This document shows, piece by piece, positions 1-24,540 of a DNA stretch of 64,000 nt. Source of the stretch: a virus; the IMG/VR virus record IMGVR_UViG_3300021387_000118, positions 13,168 through 77,167 of that record. One strand, 5' to 3'. The stretch's first letter is position 1. Each line of letters begins with the position of its first letter. A model generated the notes under the pieces. That model was not told where the DNA came from. It worked only from the letters and a program-made list of their open reading frames with translations, and did no database searches. Both the position numbers and the translations under genes were made by a program.

Positions 1-4
1 TCAT

Positions 5-1939
5 ATGGACATTGATACATTTATTAATGCCAAAGCAACAGATAAAAACAAACTTAACCATTTTAATTTATCGGTTATGGTTGATGACGATTTTATTTCT
101 GCCGTTAGAAAAGACGAGAATATTTGGCTTCATCATCCAGTATATGATGAAAATGGTAATGTGTTAAAAGATCCAGATAAGTGGATATATAGTAAACAAG
201 TATCGGCTAAAAAAATTTGGGATGAAATTATTCAGAAAGCATACGATAACGGCGAGCCTGGAATATTTTTCCTAGATAATTTAAATAGAGATAATAATAT
301 CTGGTATATAGAGAAGATAGTTTGCACTAACCCATGTTCGGAATATCTTGCTGGAACTCTTTATGGTAACAATCCAATTACTGGAGAACCAATTAATCCT
401 AAAGAATATGGTGGAGCTTGTAACCTTGGAAGTCTTTTCTTACATAGGTTTGTTGTAGATGCTTTTACTAACAATGCTCATATTAATTGGGAATTATTAA
501 AAGCAACGATTGAAACAGCAGTGAGAATGCTTGACAATATTATTGACATTAATAAGTTCCCGGATCCGATATATGAAAACTATCAGAAACATTTCAGGAC
601 TATCGGCTTGGGTTTCACGGGTCTAGGCGATTGTTTGGCAATGCTTAATTTAAAATATAACACCAAAGAAGCAAGAGATTATGTAGATAATCTTGTCGAG
701 TTCATTGCATTAAATGCATATAAGGCATCAATAGAACTAGCTAAAGAACGTGGCTCATTTGATTTTCTTGATAGAGAAAAATTTGTGCAGAGTGGATATA
801 TTCTTAAGCATTGTAAAGAAATTGATAGTTCATGGCGTGAAGTAAAAGAAGATATACTTAAATATGGTATTCGTAATGCCAAAATTCTTTCTGTGGCCCC
901 AGTAGGAACACTTAGCATTACATTTGGTAATAATTGTTCTTCTGGTTTGGAACCTATTTTCAGCCTTGAATATGAGCGAAGAGTAAAGATCGGTGGACAG
1001 ACAGAAGAAAATGAAAAGATTGTGCCGATGCGTGATTATGCGTATGGTAAATGGTTAGAGGTTAAAGACCGTCCAACCACGGTAGTTAAGAAAGATGTGT
1101 TCGTTACCGCTTTAGAAATGGATGTTGATGATCATATTGATATGCTCGGCGTTATTGCTAAACATATTGATATGTCTTGCTCTAAAACAATTAATGTTCC
1201 AGAAGATTACTCTTTTGAAAAAACTAAAGAGATTTATATGAAGTGCCATGACCTTGGAATTAAAGGCTGCACCATATTTAGACCAAACCCGCTCAGACAG
1301 GGGGTACTATTAACAAAGAAAGAAGATAAGAAACAATTCACCAATAATTCTATCGAATACACCGAGGATACATTACCTCGTGGCGTAGTTATTAAAGCTG
1401 ATGATAATTGTGTTGGCAAAAAAAGAACGCTTATAACTGGCTGTGGTACACTTCATTGTGAAGCATTCTTTGATCCATACACTGGAGCATTATTGGAAAC
1501 ATATTTTTCAAAAGGTAGTGAGGGTGGTTGTAATTCATTTATGGTCGCTTTGTCAAGAATGATTTCTTTAGCTTCTAGAGCCGGAGTAAGCATTGATTAT
1601 ATTATTGATCAGTTAGAATCAACAATTATTTGTGCATCATATGCTGTCCGTTCTGCTAAAAAACATGATACAAGTAAAGGTAATTGCTGTCCTAGTGCAA
1701 TTGGTAAAGCATTAAAGGATATGTATGAAGAAATGCAGGAAGAAATTAATGGTGACGATGACGATGACGAAGAGGATGAAACAATTCCTACTGCTGTCAA
1801 TAAGACACTAAATGAAGAAGTATCAAATATGACGGTCATAGAAGATAATAATGATAAATGTCCTGAATGTGGAGCCAAAGTTGAACATATTGGTGGATGC
1901 GTACAATGTCCTCAGTGTGCATGGAGTCGTTGCGGTTAA
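5..1939 (+). CDS. nrdJ: Class II (adenosylcobalamin-dependent) ribonucleotide reductase, 5'-truncated by window edge
   Basis: The ORF is open from the window start and has no in-frame TAG. Motifs TNPCSE and CNLGS lie ~11 aa apart, as in monomeric class II RNRs (thiyl-radical Cys and partner Cys). The C-terminus is a CxxC..CxxC zinc ribbon (CPECG...CVQCPQC). TAA stop at 1937-1939. Confidence 0.75.
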
Positions 1940-1950
1940 GGAGGAGTAAA

Positions 1951-2274
1951 ATGAGAATTCTTTATGTTGAGTCAGTGCCAAGTGGATTAAAAATATTCCT
2001 TATAGTATTTCTACTCATAGCATGCATAATAACTGGAGCATACAGTGTCAATACATGGATAGATCGCACAATTAAATCGGCAATTATTTCTACGGCAATA
2101 TTTGTTGTTTCCTTAACTGGAATAGTATTAGTCTCAACACTTATGCCAGAATATCTGCCTAATAAATACATTTATTATGTAGAAGTAACTGATGAAGAGA
2201 ATATAAGTGAATTATTAAAAGATTACAATATCATAGAAACGTATGGATCTATTTATAAAATAGAGGATAAATAA
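1951..2274 (+). CDS. Small membrane protein (two predicted TM helices)
   Basis: ATG at 1951 is preceded by RBS AAGGAGGAG. Hydrophobic segments LKIFLIVFLLIACIITGAY and AIISTAIFVVSLTGIVLV. TAA stop. Confidence 0.55.
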   Translation: MRILYVESVPSGLKIFLIVFLLIACIITGAYSVNTWIDRTIKSAIISTAIFVVSLTGIVLVSTLMPEYLPNKYIYYVEVTDEENISELLKDYNIIETYGSIYKIEDK

Positions 2275-2286
2275 CAGGAGTAAATA

Positions 2287-2658
2287 ATGGAATTTGGAAA
2301 CATGATTTTCGGATATTCACGGGGACAATATAGCGTTCCCCGTGGAATCTGGGAAGAACGATTTTATCAATTTTTAGAAAAAATCAACTCTGACAATTAT
2401 GGATATGCCAATGATCAGCACCATCCAAATGTCAATTCTCGCGGTGGATTTGAAACAACATTATTTACTATTAATCCATATTGGTGGGGAAGTTATGACG
2501 ATGACGAAGTTGGTAAACCCAATTTTATTTATCATCCAACAGGATATCATCTCACCTGGTACAAATATCCATTGAGAGATGCTTATGCTAATCAGAAAAT
2601 GACATATAAAGAATTTGATTTAATGTTGAAAGATTGTGAGGGATGTTATCATGGGTGA
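2287..2658 (+). CDS. Hypothetical protein
   Basis: RBS AACAGGAGTAAATAATGG; 123-aa uninterrupted ORF; no recognisable motif. Confidence 0.5.
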   Translation: MEFGNMIFGYSRGQYSVPRGIWEERFYQFLEKINSDNYGYANDQHHPNVNSRGGFETTLFTINPYWWGSYDDDEVGKPNFIYHPTGYHLTWYKYPLRDAYANQKMTYKEFDLMLKDCEGCYHG

Positions 2659-2889
2659 TGGTGAAGAAGAAGAATATGGCTGCTACGGCGATAATAATGA
2701 AGACAACGAAGACGAAGAGTGGGATGATTAAAATATGGGAGTAATTATAGCCGGAGTTGATTGTGACGATTGTATTTACTCCACCATTGATGATACTGAC
2801 AAGGCTCGTATAAAAGTTTATTGCGATGCTAGGGATAAACAGTATTGGTGGGGTCAAAGTATTCAATGTGAAGATAAGGAGAAAGAAAA

Positions 2890-3090
2890 GTGAACCCAGT
2901 ATTTGTGTTTTTAGTAATTTTAGGGGCTGCATTTTTATGGCTTCTTCTTTCTGGGTTGTTTAGGTTTGTTGGTAGTTTGACTCAGCATACTATTGAGAAA
3001 ACAAAAGATGCATTAGAAAATGATGATATTGGCAAACCAGAATCATTTCTTAATGGTTTTAAAAGTTCATTTAGAAAGGATAATGAGTAA
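2890..3090 (+). CDS. Small membrane protein (GTG start), possible NfeD-like partner of the SPFH protein
   Basis: RBS AAGGAGAAAGAAAAG is followed by GTG. N-terminal TM segment VFVFLVILGAAFLWLLLSGLF. The gene sits immediately upstream of, and is translationally coupled to, the SPFH gene (TAATG overlap at 3087-3092). Confidence 0.45.
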   Translation: MNPVFVFLVILGAAFLWLLLSGLFRFVGSLTQHTIEKTKDALENDDIGKPESFLNGFKSSFRKDNE

Positions 3091-4073
3091 TGAAAAAGGG
3101 TACTATTGGTGGAATTGTACTTGGAGTAGTAATTTTAATTTGTTTAATTATTGGATTTTCATGTGCTAAGAAGGTTCCGGCTGGATATGTTGGAATTATT
3201 TACAGTATGAATGGTGGTATTTCTGATGAAGTTCTTACACAAGGATGGCATATTATATCACCTACAAAGGAAGTAACACTATATTCGATTGGTATTGAGC
3301 AGTCCTATCTTACTGCCGGAAAAGATGGCGATTCAGAGGGTGATGATAGTTTTGAAGTTCCCTCATCAGATGGTAAAGGGTTGAAAGTGGATCTTACATT
3401 TACTTATAGATATGATGCTAATAAAGTTACTAGCTTGTTCACCAGGTTCAAGGGGCAGTCTGGTAAAGGTGTAAGAGATTCATTTATTAAACCCAACATT
3501 ATCTCATGGACAAAAGAAGTTACAGCAAAATACCCTGTAACTGATATTCTTGGTGATGAAAGAGCAAATCTTAATAAAGCAGTATCTGACTATATTAGAG
3601 AAAAATTTGAACCTTATGGAATCATTATTGAAAATGTTAGCTTAATTGATATTGATGCTGATGATGAAACAAGAGCCTCTGTTCAGAGAAAAGTAAATGC
3701 CCAACAAGAATTAGAACTTGCACAGATCGAACAAAAGACAGCCAATGTCCAGGCCCAGAAAGATAAGGAAGTTGCCCTTGTTAAAGCAGAACAGGATAAA
3801 GAGACTGCTTTAATTGCCGCAAACCAGGAGAAAGAAGTAGCTGCGATCAATGCCGAAAAAGCAAAGATTAAAGCAGAAGGTGAAGCTGAAGCAGCAAAGA
3901 TTAAAGCTGAAGCAGAAGCTGAAGCTAATAAGAAAATTGCAGAATCATTAACACCTGAACTTATTGAGAATAATAAGATAAATAAGTGGAATGGTACTGT
4001 TCCGGCGGTATCTGGATCTGGTGCAACAATTGTTGATGTTGGAAATATTACACAACAGAACGATGCGGAATAA
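3090..4073 (+). CDS. SPFH/band-7 (stomatin/prohibitin-like) membrane protein with C-terminal coiled coil
   Basis: N-terminal TM segment (GGIVLGVVILICLIIGF), a body typical of the SPFH domain, then a long E/A/K-rich coiled coil (QQELELAQIEQKTANVQAQKDKEVALVKAEQDKE...AEGEAEAAKIKAEAEAEA). Confidence 0.55.
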   Translation: MKKGTIGGIVLGVVILICLIIGFSCAKKVPAGYVGIIYSMNGGISDEVLTQGWHIISPTKEVTLYSIGIEQSYLTAGKDGDSEGDDSFEVPSSDGKGLKVDLTFTYRYDANKVTSLFTRFKGQSGKGVRDSFIKPNIISWTKEVTAKYPVTDILGDERANLNKAVSDYIREKFEPYGIIIENVSLIDIDADDETRASVQRKVNAQQELELAQIEQKTANVQAQKDKEVALVKAEQDKETALIAANQEKEVAAINAEKAKIKAEGEAEAAKIKAEAEAEANKKIAESLTPELIENNKINKWNGTVPAVSGSGATIVDVGNITQQNDAE

Positions 4074-4420
4074 TGATGGAACCTAAGAAATATAAATTTG
4101 AGAAAGGTGTTCCCGCTGAGACTATGATAAAATCTGGGTTTAGGCTTCGCGGGAGTCACTTCTCTTATAGAACAACTTTATACGAATATGATAATACTAA
4201 ACAACCATATGTTGAAATGAATATCTGGATTGAAAATGGAGTGCACATGACAATTGAAGTATTCTGTAATACTGGAATATATATCCCGTTTTATAATCCA
4301 AATATGAGACATGATAATCTAGTATATGAAAAGATTGTTAGCAATTATAACAACATTATGGATAGGTTTTGTAAGAAGAAAATATTAAAACATGATAGGA
4401 GAAAACATGGTGAGGATTAA
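4073..4420 (+). CDS. Hypothetical protein
   Basis: 115-aa ORF coupled to the upstream stop (TAATGATGG); no motif recognised. Confidence 0.45.
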   Translation: MMEPKKYKFEKGVPAETMIKSGFRLRGSHFSYRTTLYEYDNTKQPYVEMNIWIENGVHMTIEVFCNTGIYIPFYNPNMRHDNLVYEKIVSNYNNIMDRFCKKKILKHDRRKHGED

Positions 4421-4847
4421 TTTTAGAAAAATTGATAAGAATGCAACTGTTCCGAAGAGAGGAAGCAACGAAGCTGCCGGATACGATTTGTATGCAGATG
4501 TGGATGATATTATTGAGGTTATGCCTCATAGCACAGTAAAGATCGGAACTGGATTGGCGATGGAAATTCCCGATGGATATTTTGGAGCGATTTTTGCACG
4601 ATCTGGTCTTGCTACTAAAGAAGGACTTAGACCAAGCAATTGCGTGGGCGTTTGCGATCAAGATTTCCGGGGAGAGGTCGTTGTTGCTCTTCATAACGAT
4701 AGTGATACATCTAGGTTTATTACTCCTAACGAAAGAATTGCTCAGTTGGTTATTATTCCTTACCTTGAAGTAGAATTCAACGAAGTAGAAAAACTTAATA
4801 CAACAAGTAGAGGGACTGGTGGATTTGGTAGTACAGGAAGAGAATAA
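4407..4847 (+). CDS. dut: dUTP diphosphatase (dUTPase)
   Basis: Canonical trimeric dUTPase motifs in order: AGYDL, RSGLA, GVCDQDFRGEVVV, RIAQLVI, and the C-terminal RGTGGFGSTG. Likely start is the ATG at 4407, after RBS TAGGAGAAAAC. Confidence 0.85.
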   Translation: MVRINFRKIDKNATVPKRGSNEAAGYDLYADVDDIIEVMPHSTVKIGTGLAMEIPDGYFGAIFARSGLATKEGLRPSNCVGVCDQDFRGEVVVALHNDSDTSRFITPNERIAQLVIIPYLEVEFNEVEKLNTTSRGTGGFGSTGRE

Positions 4848-5016
4848 CCAATGTCCATACTGTGGTAATGAGTTAACAATTGTGGAACTCAATACTGCAT
4901 GCGGAAGATATTGGTATCAAGAATGTTTCGATTGCGGATGGTGCGGAGAGGAACACTATAGTAAAGATTTTTATTTTGGCGATCCAGATTTGGAGTGGGA
5001 TGATTTATGGGAATGA
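4819..5016 (+). CDS. Small zinc-ribbon protein
   Basis: CPYCG...CFDCGWCG four-Cys motif in a 65-aa ORF overlapping the dut 3' end. Confidence 0.4.
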   Translation: MDLVVQEENNQCPYCGNELTIVELNTACGRYWYQECFDCGWCGEEHYSKDFYFGDPDLEWDDLWE

Positions 5017-5432
5017 CTGTGATATTTATTATTTTATTAATCATATCACTTATGATATTTGCAATATTATTGATACATTTTGGAATTACCTTATTCGATT
5101 ATCATCAAGGAATCAACGATGAACAAACAATGACATTCAAACAATTTGAAAATCTATATTATACTAATCCAGACAAATGGATGTTTAAAGATTATTCCAT
5201 ACCATATGTTAGTTACTATTATGAGGGTAATAGTTACACCGACATATATATGTCGCACTATCTGGATTCAATAAAATTAAAAAAGATGTTTGCCAATATC
5301 AAGGATAAACTTAAAGAAAAGGAAAAAATTGAAGAGCGTAAAGATCTATTAAAATACTGGCAGAAAGATATTGATGATTATAACAATAAAATATTAAAAG
5401 AAATGAAAGGATTATTGAAAAATGAAAATTAG
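5007..5432 (+). CDS. Membrane protein, hypothetical
   Basis: N-terminal TM helix (VIFIILLIISLMIFAILLIHFGI) followed by a K/E-rich tail. Confidence 0.5.
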   Translation: MGMTVIFIILLIISLMIFAILLIHFGITLFDYHQGINDEQTMTFKQFENLYYTNPDKWMFKDYSIPYVSYYYEGNSYTDIYMSHYLDSIKLKKMFANIKDKLKEKEKIEERKDLLKYWQKDIDDYNNKILKEMKGLLKNEN

Positions 5433-5652
5433 TCATATTAGAGACATTGATAAATTTTTTAAAGTAATTGATTCATGTACCGGAAAGGTGGAATTGATCG
5501 GCGAAGATCTCCGGCTGAACCTTAAGAGCAATCTTGCCAAATACTTTGCCCTTGCAAATATCTTTAATGGTGGTGAAGAAATTCCCGAATTAGAGATTGT
5601 GGCATACAACCAGGAAGATATTAATAGGCTGATCCAGTATATGATTGGATAA
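5422..5652 (+). CDS. Hypothetical protein upstream of integrase (excisionase/accessory candidate)
   Basis: 76-aa ORF directly upstream of int; no confident motif. Confidence 0.35.
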   Translation: MKISHIRDIDKFFKVIDSCTGKVELIGEDLRLNLKSNLAKYFALANIFNGGEEIPELEIVAYNQEDINRLIQYMIG

Positions 5653-5663
5653 TTTATTAAACA

Positions 5664-5700
5664 AAGTCGGCGGATCAATTAGGTTCGCCGATATTTATAA
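5664..5700 (+). terminator. Putative rho-independent terminator
   Basis: GTCGGCG...CGCCGAT hairpin followed by TATTTAT. Confidence 0.35.
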
Positions 5701-5766
5701 GGATGTGATTTTATAGATAAGAAAGAACTTGAAAACATCCTTTCTGCTACTACCGAATATAAAGAA

Positions 5767-7023
5767 ATGTTGCAGTTATTTTTAAATAATGATATGATCA
5801 CATCGGAAACTGCGCAGGATTTATACATGGCAATTAGAAGAAAGGAGATACTAAAAAAATATAAACCGAGTTTAGGAAGCGATGGATTATGGTATGTCAA
5901 CATCAGATTTGCTCGTGGACCATCTGGCAGAAAAACCATTAGGAAAAAAGATCTGGATGAATTAGAAAATGAAATTGTCAAATTCGTTCTGAATAATGAA
6001 AACGCCAGACAACCGTTTGAGAAGAAGACGGTGGAATTTTTTCCGTATAGTTCTGCATTTACCAACTGGCTGAAAGCGCAGCATTATAAAAATCACAATA
6101 CCGAACAGCGCAATATGCGGGAGTATAAACGCTTCTTTGAGCGTCTTAAAGTCGGTCGGGAAATAGCTGACAAGGATATTAGAGATATAAAACCTTCAGA
6201 TATTGAGGGCTTTATGATTGAAGCTATTACTAAATACAATCTCACATCAAGGAAATCACGGGAAGATTATCATATGTTCTTTGAGTGTGTATATGAACAG
6301 GCTATCATCGACAGATTTATTCAGACGACAGATAACCCATGTGTTCTAATCCAGAAGAACAGGTTTTTGCAGTACGCCAGAAAAGAGATTTTTAATGACT
6401 CTGAACGTACAATCTCAGATAATGTTTCTGCGATTATTCAAGATGCTGTAGATAACGACCATTTTAAGAAAGAAGATTATATGCCGCCTTATGCCTGTGA
6501 ACTTTCAGCACTGACAGGATTAAGGTGTGGCGAACTTGCTGGCTTATTGTGGAAAGATGTTGACGAAAGTTTAGGACACATCAAAATTTGCCGAAGTCAG
6601 AAATATGATGAGAAAAATAAATCATATTATCTGGACGAAACAAAAAATGGGGTAATCAGGTATATCCCAATCACAGATGAAGTGCAACGTGTGTTGAATA
6701 GGATAAAAGCAATTCAAAAAACATATGGTCGTACTGGAGATTATGTTTTTTCAACATCAAAAGGCGCAGCCAATAACCGCCAGATCAGCGATTATATGTT
6801 TAATAAGAAGAAGCAGTATAAAATAAAACAGCCAATCAGCATTCACGCACAGCGCAGGACAATCAACAGCCGCATGGAAAATGCCGGAGTTTCGGCGGCA
6901 GTCCGTGCATCATTGCTTGGTCATACGGAGAGAACAAATATCAGTAACTATTCTTATGATGTTTCGTCATTAGACTACAAACGTGATGCTCTCTCGAAGG
7001 CTAGTATTGCACACAAAACCTGA
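5767..7023 (+). CDS. int: Tyrosine recombinase / phage integrase
   Basis: Box I LTGLRCGELAGLLWKDVD (catalytic Arg), HAQRRT (H-x-x-R), LLGH and the catalytic Tyr in SNYSY. N-terminal SAM-like arm-binding region. No in-frame TAG. An alternative start is the ATG at 5827 (AGGA spacer). TGA stop. Confidence 0.85.
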   Translation: MLQLFLNNDMITSETAQDLYMAIRRKEILKKYKPSLGSDGLWYVNIRFARGPSGRKTIRKKDLDELENEIVKFVLNNENARQPFEKKTVEFFPYSSAFTNWLKAQHYKNHNTEQRNMREYKRFFERLKVGREIADKDIRDIKPSDIEGFMIEAITKYNLTSRKSREDYHMFFECVYEQAIIDRFIQTTDNPCVLIQKNRFLQYARKEIFNDSERTISDNVSAIIQDAVDNDHFKKEDYMPPYACELSALTGLRCGELAGLLWKDVDESLGHIKICRSQKYDEKNKSYYLDETKNGVIRYIPITDEVQRVLNRIKAIQKTYGRTGDYVFSTSKGAANNRQISDYMFNKKKQYKIKQPISIHAQRRTINSRMENAGVSAAVRASLLGHTERTNISNYSYDVSSLDYKRDALSKASIAHKT

Positions 7024-7200
7024 TACGTAAACCTGATACGTAAGGTATGACTAACCGCAAGAAATAGCTTAAATACAATGAAAATTGATCTTCAGGGCGG
7101 GGCGCAATTCCCCTAATCGTATTTAAGAAAAAACCTTGATTATTCAACGAAAATCAGACCTCGATTTTGCGATTTTACCCTGATACGCCTGATACGTGAA
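7019..7200. other. Candidate attP: CTGATACG direct repeats (two tandem pairs) flanking a GC-rich core
   Basis: CCTGATACGTAA occurs twice in tandem at 7019-7042 and CCTGATACGCCTGATACGTG at 7178-7196. They flank an unusually GC-rich segment (GGGCGGGGCGCAATTCCCC) immediately downstream of int. Confidence 0.4.
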
Positions 7201-7325
7201 AATGACCACATAGAAAGGAGAAGCGCAGTTTCCTTCCTATTGTTTCCATATTTATTTATTCACATAAATAAGTTGACTTGTGTGATTAAATAAGTATGGA
7301 AAACGCATAAAAAATCGTAAAAAAT

Positions 7326-7351
7326 GGGGTTATCCAATTAAGGACAACCCC
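7326..7351. terminator. Bidirectional rho-independent terminator (end of the minus-strand late/lysis operon)
   Basis: GGGGTTATCC...GGACAACCCC hairpin with TTTAT on the plus side and ATTTTTTACGATTTTTT on the minus side. Lies just downstream of the last minus-strand gene. Confidence 0.5.
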
Positions 7352-7391
7352 TTTATAGTCAACTCAGTTTGCCGAGTAACTGAGCTATGAA

Positions 7392-8162
7392 TCATACTTC
7401 AATAATATCTGCATTAAAACCATTCTACCTCAGGAGCGTTTGACGTTCCTTGGCATTAGCTAATTTACTATATGAACCGCAATATACATATGTTTGATTA
7501 TTATTAACCTCGGTAAAACAGTCGAGATTGAGTTTGATCTTAATCCTCTGCTGAATAATAGTAACGTTTTCCGGTATAGAATAAATCCCAACTCTTACAC
7601 GAAAGTTCTTAGGTTTAGGCTGATCCCTCAGGCGAAGAATATACATAACCTTAGCATTAGGATGAGCAAGACTGCCGATCCATTTTATGTAGGTCGCGCC
7701 CTCACCAGATTCACCCCCAGTAAATGCATGTCCAGTGTCGTAGCTCTTTCCATTGCCATAATAAGCATTCGTATGAGACATACTAACATAAGTCAACACA
7801 TCTCCTGGCAGAAGAGTACCATCATTCATTAACTGCTTGACGGTCTTCTTACCCTTGATAGAGATAATCTTAAAATACTTCTTACAATCTTCTTTAGCCG
7901 TAGAATTCAGCCACACAATTTTTCCCGCACCACCATACCATTGAAGCGCACTTGCGGGAACTCCTGCTCCTTTCATGGCAAATATTACGCCGCCAGCACA
8001 ATTCGTATATCTCATATTTGCTTTACGGGTAGCTTCGAAAGTAGGTTTACTTCGATGGCTGCTATTATTATAATATTTCCAAGGCTTACCATCAGCCTTA
8101 TCCTATTTAACAATCTTATTATATTCTTTACACTTAGCAAGAAAGTTTTCAACTAAACTCAT
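7392..8162 (-). CDS. CHAP/NlpC-P60-like peptidoglycan peptidase (lysin), two in-frame TAGs
   Basis: RBS AAGGGGGAA precedes the ATG at 8162. The frame is continuous through TAG at 8103-8105 and 7425-7427 and ends at TGA 7392-7394. Motifs: Cys in YTNCAGGV, LLPGDVLTY, His in HTNAYYG. Confidence 0.55.
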
Positions 8163-10408: not shown

Positions 10409-10939
10409 TTAGGAAGTTCCCCATTCTGATCTTTCAAATAATCCAACAGCAGTAGCATTAACATTTTTACCTCTCAGATATATGCTAGGGTTAACAACAA
10501 TTTGTTCTCCAACGTATCCATCTTTCTTAGAACCTTCTCTAGAATAATTAATAACACCTTTTTTGTTTAAATTCATAATATTTCTTTTTAATGTACCCTC
10601 TGGAATTTTCATTAAATCTGCTAAATCTTTAATGCCTAATTTTTTACCGTTTTTATGACCACCAGTGCGAAGAATACAATCATCATAACAAACAAAATCC
10701 GCCAGAGACATAGCAGTGGAAAATTCTCCCTAATTATTCAGATATATTCTTAATTCATTCACTCCGTCAAATAATTTGACGAAATTCTTATTTCCGTTAA
10801 AATCTCTAATGATTAAATCAGACTCATTTTGATGAACTACGTAATCACCAAATTTCATTTCATCAACAATTTCACCTGTTGTTTTACTGACAACAGCATA
10901 TAAAACTTCATCTTCTTGTTCTTTATTATTTTCCTTCAT
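10409..10939 (-). CDS. Putative HTH transcriptional regulator (one in-frame TAG at 10730)
   Basis: RBS AAGGAGGAG before the ATG at 10939. Fragments 10730-10939 and 10409-10711 share a frame joined by TAG. The C-terminal LADLMKIPEGTLKRNIMNLNKKGVI resembles a winged-helix HTH. Real TAA stop. Confidence 0.5.
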
Positions 10940-13126: not shown

Positions 13127-13654
13127 TCAATTAGCCTCTTTCACATTGGTTGTTTCATCCATAAAGGACAGAATATTAAGTGCATCAAAATTGATAGCAG
13201 TATCATCGCTAAGACCATCAACGAAATCATCAAAATCAACTGTCGCAACATCAACCTCATTTGTTTCCAGAAGAATATCACGGAGCTTCGTATTTAACTC
13301 ATCAAATTCTTTCTGATAATCAGCCTGAAATTCTTTCTTCAAATGTTTGAGTTCTTGCATGATCTCGTTGCCGTCAGTATCCTTTACAACATTTCCATTG
13401 GCATCACGCTCAGGTTCAGAGATGATTTCCGTATTGTCATCCGTGAACCATTTCTCTTGGATTTTCTTAACTTCCCCATCTCTAAGTTCATCGAACCTCT
13501 TAGCAATCGGAATGATTGCGTCAAGATTCTTCTTCAAATACCACCTGAATTTCAGCGGTAATTCATTGCTCATTTCTTCCGTAAAATAGTTATTAATATA
13601 AGCTACGATGTTAACGATTTCTAATGTTGTAAATTCCTTTTTAATATTTTTCAT
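13127..13654 (-). CDS. Acidic hypothetical protein (no in-frame TAG)
   Basis: RBS AAAGGAGAAAAC before the ATG at 13654. 175 aa, D/E-rich. TGA stop. Confidence 0.5.
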   Translation of the reverse strand: MKNIKKEFTTLEIVNIVAYINNYFTEEMSNELPLKFRWYLKKNLDAIIPIAKRFDELRDGEVKKIQEKWFTDDNTEIISEPERDANGNVVKDTDGNEIMQELKHLKKEFQADYQKEFDELNTKLRDILLETNEVDVATVDFDDFVDGLSDDTAINFDALNILSFMDETTNVKEAN

Positions 13655-23585: not shown

Positions 23586-24155
23586 TTAGGTCAATAATTC
23601 TTCAATTTCAAAATTTGTTAACGCTCTATCATTGCGTAAATAATCTATGCTTAAATCTCTGTCTCCGATTAATGTAGTACCATCAATTTTTGGTTTATTA
23701 ATTAATTTCTCATAATCATTAGTATATTTATTAAGGTCAATCAATACTGTCCAGAGACTCTGTGTTTCATATTTATATTCAATAATTCCATCATTATTCC
23801 GAATCTCCATTTTATCACCGTGAAGACTCGCAATCCATTCTTCTTCAGTACCCTCATAATCTGTGTAGATAACTGCAATTTCATAAGCACTTAAACCGCG
23901 AAGAGTAGCGTTGGAAAGTTTACCAGTCATATCAATGACTTTTGATAAACTTCCCGACAACTTCCTCTTCTCAGGAGATATTGCTCCTGTTAAATTTTGC
24001 GGACTTGATAAAAGTCCAGATAGTGCTTGTAGTGGAGTTACCGTTGAGCCAGAAAGGTCAATTGTACCATTGGTAATTTGTCCTGTTAATGAAGATACTG
24101 GATGGAGGGTGCCAGTTAGTTGACCTAATCCAGAAAGAGTTCCGGTAAGTTCCAT
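23586..24155 (-). CDS. Tail-fiber-like protein with LSAYEIAV..GYEGTEEEWIASLHG motif
   Basis: RBS GGGAGGTG before the ATG at 24155. No in-frame TAG. TAA at 23586. N-terminal LTGTL-type repeats. Confidence 0.5.
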   Translation of the reverse strand: MELTGTLSGLGQLTGTLHPVSSLTGQITNGTIDLSGSTVTPLQALSGLLSSPQNLTGAISPEKRKLSGSLSKVIDMTGKLSNATLRGLSAYEIAVIYTDYEGTEEEWIASLHGDKMEIRNNDGIIEYKYETQSLWTVLIDLNKYTNDYEKLINKPKIDGTTLIGDRDLSIDYLRNDRALTNFEIEELLT

Positions 24156-24172
24156 AGCAAAACACCTCCCGA

Positions 24173-24511
24173 TCACGAAACTTCTTCAGTTAGTTTTAGC
24201 TTACCGCTAATTATTGTGTCTACAATTTGATCTCCATAGGTTAATTGTATATCAAATACATATGTTTCTGGTTGAGCAAGATTTTTAGTATCTTCAGAAT
24301 CTACTCTAAGAATCATGGTATCAATTGGAATATTTTTCTCAATTAATATTTTTTTATCATTATAATCTTTTTTCAGAGCAAATCTAAGAGTATCGGTTTC
24401 TTCGGGAACATATTCATTTCCATCAGAATCTGTAATATTGATTTTTGTTATAAGAGTATCTGCACGGGTCATTAAAATCATATTTTTATCGGATCTAATT
24501 TTTACCGACAT
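24173..24511 (-). CDS. Hypothetical structural protein
   Basis: RBS GGAGGTGA before the ATG at 24511. TGA at 24173. 112 aa. Confidence 0.45.
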   Translation of the reverse strand: MSVKIRSDKNMILMTRADTLITKINITDSDGNEYVPEETDTLRFALKKDYNDKKILIEKNIPIDTMILRVDSEDTKNLAQPETYVFDIQLTYGDQIVDTIISGKLKLTEEVS

Positions 24512-24540
24512 ATAACTCACCTCCATTTAAGTTATTTTAT

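Follow-up and report, generated by a model that had tools for sequence, protein, structure and literature searches.

A large integrase-bearing phage divided into a standard-code block and a TAG-recoded block of virion and lysis genes

A stretch of 64,000 nt from the IMG/VR virus record IMGVR_UViG_3300021387_000118 (positions 13,168 to 77,167 of that record; hereafter the window) belongs to a large, integrase-bearing phage whose genome is split between two codes. Genes for nucleotide metabolism, repair, replication-associated functions and the integrase, which we take to be early genes, form a standard-code block, whereas the virion and lysis genes, which would act late, form a block in which TAG is a sense codon and most likely stands for glutamine. 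The partition can be understood as a translational lock, in which an amber-suppressor tRNA with anticodon CUA, tRNA(CUA), encoded on the strand of the late genes, licenses their translation; we consider this account somewhat better supported than not. An original prediction made from the letters of the window had proposed both the partition and its use as a timing switch for lysis. The partition was borne out, within the window and beyond it, and several of the particulars had to be revised.

In the window, a tightly packed plus-strand block (1-7023, 96% coding) and a minus-strand block (7392-64000) converge on a 368-nt spacer (Table 1). Reading TAG as sense raised the summed length of the long open reading frames (ORFs) from 12,365 to 22,594 aa, with a longest ORF of 3,568 aa. 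With TGA as sense instead, the total was 15,352 aa, and with TAA as sense 21,357 aa; in neither case did the longest ORF exceed 821 aa. Over the 31 late genes of the window, 202 of 18,401 codons are TAG (11.0 per 1000), equivalent to 26% of all glutamine-type codons. In contrast, TAG is absent from the 2,249 early codons, where 24.7 would be expected at the late rate (P(0) = 1.7e-11), and a Fisher test of TAG against CAA+CAG in the two blocks gave p = 8.5e-8. As had been predicted, the ribonucleotide reductase (NrdJ-like) fragment, the SPFH protein, the dUTPase and the integrase, which is the last gene of the standard-code block, all lack in-frame TAG. The 644 codons ascribed to NrdJ are, however, a fragment cut by the window edge; the complete gene, seen in a sequence that we label L004, starts upstream of the window, encodes 802 aa and is likewise without TAG.

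The same division extends beyond the window. By exact look-up of the SPFH protein we found the ENA contig ERZ12302816 NODE_139 (142,374 nt), whose positions 54,679-118,678 are the window at 100% identity, and we walked outwards from there by exact-protein look-ups. About 124 kb of the phage were covered, mostly on this contig, the leftmost ~80 kb of the genome lying beyond this stretch. The plus-strand block continues for at least 36 kb upstream of the window, so that the TAG-free block measures at least 43 kb in all; the minus-strand block runs on for at least 24 kb through tail, capsid and head genes to the contig end (at least 87 kb in total), in the order terminase and portal, then capsid, tail, and finally holin and lysins. 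In this extended count, the 84 early genes (12,435 codons) contained no sense TAG, including those in the ~36 kb farther upstream, and ended in TAA (43), TGA (38) or TAG (3). The 60 late genes (25,105 codons) contained 302 sense TAG and ended in TAA (41) or TGA (19). At the overall late density of ~12 TAG per 1000 codons, roughly a quarter of the glutamine-type codons, ~150 TAG would be expected in the early genes (Fisher p = 6.9e-39).

Since the blocks occupy opposite strands and have opposite GC skew, the difference might be thought an artefact of composition, strand bias or chance. Counting TAG in all frames, as the original prediction had proposed, speaks against this: on the coding strand, out-of-frame TAG is equally frequent in both blocks (19.3 early and 17.4 late per 1000), while the in-frame values are 0 and 11.0. 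The absence of TAG from early genes is therefore frame-specific and not an effect of composition or strand. These counts, the Fisher test on the extended set and the giant ORFs, which exist only with TAG as sense, already refute an artefact, and we give that explanation practically no weight.

The early half is written in the standard code, beyond merely being TAG-free, because TAG serves there as a genuine stop. The stored gene calls use code 15 throughout, and four in-frame TAGs thereby surfaced in three early genes. In two of these genes a ribosome-binding site and the start codon (ATG) of the following ORF come within 25-40 nt after the TAG; the TAG ends lie at contig positions 41,355-41,357 and 43,000-43,002 (L008/L011), ~13.3 and 11.7 kb upstream of the window start. 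The third TAG (window position 5430) stands 5 codons ahead of a TGA, and ORF 5007-5432 would gain only 5 residues with TAG as glutamine before reaching that TGA at 5448-5450. The in-frame TAGs of all three genes are best read as true stops. Consequently, the earlier statement that plus-strand genes never end in TAG fails for ORF 5007-5432 and for the two genes upstream. Both upstream stops are in frame with the next gene, and the common motif AATGAGTTTTTGAT[GA]GGAG follows each of them; with a suppressor present, read-through would fuse each gene pair into products of 163 and 265 aa.

The most likely meaning of TAG in the late genes is glutamine, judging by a modest sample of positions compared with related proteins. 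When TAG positions of late proteins were aligned with related IMG/VR loci (tblastn), the counterpart was Q in 23 cases, E in 13, R in 6, K in 4 and S in 2; reciprocally, TAG in relatives aligned mainly with Q of this phage. Two TAGs of the endolysin fall on conserved residues. Codon 302 corresponds to the Q of the GH73 'AQA.LE' motif in 3/3 solved homologue structures, and codon 570 to the Q of the SPOR 'VQ.G' motif. The CAG:CAA ratio is 1.40 in early and 0.39 in late genes, and the low late ratio fits an origin of the late TAGs from CAG. Serine, leucine or tyrosine, which the long variable arm of the candidate suppressor (below) would suggest, were rejected, because the alignments place TAG opposite Q, E, K and R and at the conserved Q motifs.

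The candidate suppressor was found in relatives. A capsid-protein search led to L021, a 21.8-kb IMG/VR contig whose DNA is 97-98% identical to the end of NODE_139 and which extends 8.3 kb beyond it. L021 carries a tRNA(CUA) at 6381-6472 (Rfam tRNA, 59 bits) on the late strand, 40 nt past the portal gene, flanked by TAG-containing genes and ~1.9 kb beyond the point where NODE_139 stops. A tRNA(CUA) in L024 (222-313) belongs to a Pro-Sup-Thr-Asn tRNA cluster ~9.7 kb upstream of the capsid gene, the corresponding cluster in L021 and L038 adjoining the terminase gene, just ahead of it; another in L022 (20379-20474) lies ~9 kb downstream of the capsid gene. All three, 91-96 nt in length, fold as cloverleaves whose variable region bears an additional stem-loop, as in Ser, Leu and Tyr tRNAs. 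This variable-arm motif was found in 6 IMG/VR contigs, and a literature search on long-variable-arm tRNA(CUA) returned no description. The 5′ half of the L024 tRNA(CUA) presumably resembles tRNA-Gln, and the discriminator base of this tRNA is G73, which we take as a lead only.

Several observations on the surroundings of this tRNA may be recorded here. In L021, the ~100 nt between tRNA(CUA) and a GIY-YIG gene (6473-6580) contain several hairpins, CACACAG...CTGTGTG and GGAGAGA...TCTCTCC, and match no known Rfam ribozyme; neither an HDV-like nor a theta ribozyme came up when the surroundings of the tRNA were scanned with Rfam. Another L021 tRNA (1077-1149) was assigned the anticodon ATT (Asn) by ARAGORN, where its counterpart in L024 and L038 carries GTT; the discrepancy reflects either a genuine A34 variant or a difference in sequencing. 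Three independent assemblies, NODE_139, SHIW14 scaffold_391 and WILK20 scaffold_672 (L038), break ~0.8-2 kb past the portal gene. At the NODE_139 end, position 1 of L018 equals L021 position 8311, and L021 has the suppressor tRNA and the GIY-YIG homing endonuclease at that place. Either a physical end of the genome or a spot that varies between strains could explain the shared break point. The ~124 kb covered showed no 'code-change module' with a release factor or tRNA synthetase.

A host that always reads TAG as glutamine would make a switch unnecessary and leave the lack of early TAG to chance or codon preference. Such a host would accord with the failure to find a suppressor tRNA in the window's own contig. 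We nevertheless consider it highly improbable: no sense TAG occurs in the early codons against the ~150 expected, three early genes stop at TAG with the ribosome-binding site and ATG of the next gene after it, and relatives encode their own tRNA(CUA). Moreover, the related phage L029, from a Lachnospiraceae genome bin, reads well in the standard code, and we know of no bacterium with a constitutive TAG = Gln code. Both conditions named beforehand as refuting the original prediction, in-frame TAG in early genes elsewhere in the genome and a host with TAG constitutively sense, thus came out in its favour.

We favour, if moderately, the interpretation that the late-strand tRNA(CUA) licenses the late genes. 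Early and integration genes would be translated by unmodified host machinery and hence must stay TAG-free, while virion and lysis genes would give truncated products until tRNA(CUA) is present. In close relatives the tRNA gene lies on the late strand, inside the late block or at its head; its place within the block of a relative 97-98% identical suggests that the tRNA is made together with the late mRNAs and not before them. Because it lies on the late strand, late transcription would probably deliver both the late mRNAs and the tRNA needed to read them. The net effect would be to keep virion and lysis proteins from building up during lysogeny and early infection. As predicted, both lysins, the holin and the 176-aa ORF contain internal TAG (Table 1), which supports the claim that lysins and holin are full-length only if TAG is read through.

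Five points weigh against this interpretation. First, ARAGORN and Rfam searches of the window and the ~124 kb of the phage found no tRNA. Second, no tRNA(CUA) follows the portal gene of the relative L038. Third, a terminator-like hairpin stands immediately upstream of the L021 tRNA(CUA), which makes co-transcription with the late genes uncertain. Fourth, lysis genes are not preferentially recoded: TAG makes up 0.267 of the glutamine-type codons in the lysis cassette and 0.276 in the other late genes (Fisher p = 1.0). Fifth, the statement that every late gene needs amber suppression went too far, as 4 of the 31 late genes in the window and 10 of 60 overall (8.2 expected by chance) have no TAG. 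Because the lysis genes are not enriched in TAG and these ten late genes escape it, the lock is neither aimed at lysis nor complete.

The same numbers bear on whether the partition was selected. A suppressor present only late would make CAG-to-TAG changes harmless in late genes and lethal in earlier ones, so that the partition could be a passive by-product recording expression timing, with no selected switch. Such an origin fits the data equally well as an adaptive switch; as an explanation we hold it possible, if rather unlikely. In its favour, TAG is spread roughly evenly over the late genes, with the number of TAG-free genes close to chance and the lysis cassette not enriched, and late CAG is depleted in step with the gain of TAG. 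In addition, a standard-code relative (capsid 71%) exists, in keeping with published descriptions of drift into recoding as recent and easy. On the other side, the late genes are heterogeneous (chi-square p = 0.001), the 2782-aa protein being depleted in TAG and the tape measure and a 651-aa protein enriched, and TAG is rare even as an early stop (3/84), suggesting active avoidance. Furthermore, a passive origin yields the same functional lock and differs mainly in evolutionary cause.

The partition might also reflect a mosaic genome, the early and integration block having been taken recently from a standard-code phage and not yet having accumulated TAG. Phage genomes are modular, and TAG-free stretches of the late block coincide with mobile or accessory genes, namely those for an HNH endonuclease and a second recombinase and the GmrSD_N gene. 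However, the TAG-free block spans at least 43 kb and its G+C content (~0.34-0.35) is within the range found across the late block (~0.33-0.43); the replication genes of the relative L020 (DnaB-primase, DNA polymerase III alpha) have no sense TAG either, and the same split occurs in unrelated recoded phage clades. A mosaic origin is thus very unlikely.

The licensing account can be carried further, to a temperate phage of ~200 kb in which TAG means stop early and glutamine late, a long-arm tRNA(CUA) inside the late operon lets the late module license its own translation, the arm is tied to a phage factor, and some fusion proteins arise only late. In this extended form, the tRNA could, through its extra variable arm, depend on the phage factor or be shielded by it, and the two early genes with in-frame TAG stops would give fusion proteins only late in infection. 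We put this forward tentatively and think it unlikely to hold as a whole.

The phage most likely infects Lachnospiraceae-type gut bacteria. Its type of holin, its SPOR lysins and its capsid protein point to the Firmicutes; the last shares 28-31% identity with capsid proteins of SPbeta-like, Lactococcus 949-group and Bacillus phages and matches Firmicutes phages only. Pfam families named after SPbeta proteins also match: YonB here, YonJ and YonG in the relative L038, and, more weakly, YomW and YomO. A crAss-like phage (Crassvirales) was rejected on the grounds that the capsid matches only Firmicutes phages and that the phage has a holin and lysins of Gram-positive type. Genome collections yielded L029 as the closest relative (JAFQBM010000040.1; major capsid protein 71% identical), on a 378-kb contig binned to a Lachnospiraceae genome from goat caecum. 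The 21 kb of L029 that were examined read well in the standard code; because a relative this close does so, recoding seems to have arisen recently within this phage family. This agrees with the three early TAG stops in arguing against a host in which TAG is constitutively sense. The placement of L029 in that genome bin indirectly suggests a Lachnospiraceae-type host and integration; neither an attachment site nor a host junction of this phage was seen in the sequence examined. DNA searches of GenBank phages gave no relative, the sole matches being 90-nt stretches in the SPFH gene to Enterococcus phages. An exact 45-mer taken from the start of the window occurred in neither IMG/VR nor the GTDB genomes, and matched one metagenome contig of 5.1 kb.

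The genome is probably ~200 kb, because in a second sample (ERZ28612940) the same sequence is divided between scaffold_342 and scaffold_391, one of 105.8 and the other of 99.5 kb, which abut inside NODE_139, and relatives were found on contigs of 185-206 kb. On the same evidence we rejected the 142-kb contig as the complete genome.

Table 1. Genes and other features of the 64,000-nt window, in order of position.
Feature	Position	Strand	Remarks
Class II ribonucleotide reductase (NrdJ-like), C-terminal 644 codons	1-1939	+	Pfam Ribonuc_red_lgC from profile position 89, plus TSCPD; no in-frame TAG; TAA stop
Four small ORFs, no assigned function	1951-2274, 2287-2658, 2735-2893, 2890-3090	+	No TAG; TAA or TGA stops
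SPFH/Band-7 protein, 327 aa	3090-4073	+	Pfam Band_7 E = 2e-26; no TAG; TAA stop
115-aa ORF, no assigned function	4073-4420	+	No TAG
dUTPase, 146-151 aa by start choice	4407-4847	+	Pfam dUTPase E = 2e-30; no TAG
141-aa ORF, N-terminal membrane helix	5007-5432	+	Start and end overlap neighbours; TAG stop at 5430-5432
76-aa ORF	5422-5652	+	ATG overlaps end of ORF 5007-5432; no TAG; TAA stop
Tyrosine integrase, 398 aa (ATG 5827) or 418 aa (ATG 5767)	5827-7023	+	Pfam Phage_integrase E = 3e-17; no in-frame TAG; TGA stop
Intergenic meeting point of the code blocks, head-on	7024-7391		Terminator-like hairpin for the late strand at 7351-7326
Putative second lysin, 256 aa, C-terminal SPOR-like domain	7392-8162	-	Sole family match a weak SPOR (E = 1e-4); TAG at codons 20 and 246
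Endolysin, amidase_2 + glucosaminidase (GH73) + SPOR, 599 aa	8177-9976	-	8 in-frame TAG
176-aa ORF	10409-10939	-	One TAG, codon 70
Holin (Phage_holin_1), 86 aa	11203-11463	-	TAG at codon 27, within the Pfam holin domain
Tail, fibre and very large virion genes (1670, 1076, 2782, 1708 and 3560 aa included)	11483-58158	-	TAG ~11 per 1000 codons
GmrSD_N/DUF262-family gene, 328 aa	58183-59169	-	Between tape measure and 3560-aa protein; no TAG (P ~0.03)
Tape-measure protein, C-terminal 1,517 codons	59446-64000	-	Full protein 3,226 aa, 73 TAG; crosses right window edge

The early genes that precede the window include those for DNA ligase, thymidylate synthase (ThyA), nucleoside deoxyribosyltransferases, an HNH endonuclease and others. 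Also encoded there (L008 5905-6336; L015 1-948 and 2719-8441) are two RNA ligases and a kinase, these three being a possible tRNA-repair set, together with a PTH2 peptidyl-tRNA hydrolase, a PARP/WGR protein and an 805-aa MVP_shoulder protein, all of them named from precomputed Pfam matches alone. Among the late genes of the window, the 176-aa ORF had been labelled a regulator; it has no family match in Pfam or PHROGs, which leaves that label unsupported. Strong terminator-like hairpins on the minus strand, two just downstream of the holin gene (11102-11002) and one after the last lysin gene (Table 1), suggest that the lysins and the 176-aa ORF may form a transcription unit apart from the holin and tail genes. 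Three TAG-free genes lie within the tail region (13127-13654, 23586-24176 and 24173-24526), and the GmrSD_N/DUF262 gene may be a recently acquired accessory gene. A search of IMG/VR with the 1708-aa tail protein found a single distant relative.

Outside the window, the recoded late block contains a standard-code island (L018 8712-13193; contig ~129,200-133,700). It comprises a 149-aa ORF, a group I intron (L010 579-913; Rfam 53 bits), a 311-aa HNH endonuclease, ORFs of 138 and 127 aa and a second tyrosine recombinase (307 aa). Its five ORFs have 0 TAG in 1,032 codons, against ~12 expected; an 87-aa ORF among them has one.

The idea of a licensing switch is not new here but has been published by Borges et al. 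(bioRxiv 10.1101/2021.08.26.457843), who found recoding concentrated in structural and lysis genes, noted that integrases of recoded prophages lack in-frame stops, and proposed the genetic code as a lysis-lysogeny partition or switch. The temperate Garnet and Topaz gut phages of that study are the nearest parallels. Like the phage described here, they have TAG = Gln in structural and lysis genes, a stop-free integrase and an occasional TAG as a real terminator; their hosts read the standard code, those of Topaz being Clostridia (Oscillospiraceae). However, their prophages measure 22-34 kb with nearly all genes but the integrase recoded, whereas the present genome probably has a length of ~200 kb and keeps the standard code in at least 43 kb of early genes and not just in the integrase. 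Moreover, Garnet and Topaz are prophages, whereas this phage is a putative integrating one.

In the large recoded clades (crAss-like, Lak, Jade, Sapphire, Agate), late structural and lysis genes are recoded, replication genes are in the standard code in several, and suppressor tRNAs are phage-encoded; TAG = Gln in crAss-like phages was confirmed by metaproteomics (PMC9523058). Their genomes, too, are divided into code blocks, and the Mgcod tool is built on such block-wise dual coding, which it detects. Lysis genes are the most strongly recoded ones in crAss-like phages and Agate, which is not the case here, and Jade, Sapphire, Agate and Lak have several scattered recoded modules instead of the single contiguous block of at least 87 kb. 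The genome size is like that of Jade or Sapphire, a resemblance that is no test of clade membership. The SPbeta-like phages, the Lactococcus 949 group and Bacillus phage Kirov share with this phage the capsid similarity given above, SPbeta-named families, Gram-positive-type holin and lysins and a very long tape measure. SPbeta integrates by a serine recombinase, whereas the integrase here is a tyrosine recombinase. These cultured phages are in the standard code throughout, and no DNA-level similarity between them and this phage was found.

Collectively, the phage is a new large, integrase-bearing case of an already published recoding pattern, its source likely being ruminant gut samples. It shows clean block-wise dual coding in a lineage and size class for which the literature and databases searched held no description, and the suppressor tRNA of this family, whose long variable arm is atypical, is encoded on the late strand. 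Gene callers set to the standard code badly fragment such contigs, as seen in L006. While no new question is opened, the phage is a good test case for the existing one. Lysis genes are no focus of its recoding, and this weakens the hypothesis in its specific 'lysis timer' form for this lineage. Its standard-code half uses TAG as a genuine stop, so that two meanings of TAG would coexist in one genome.

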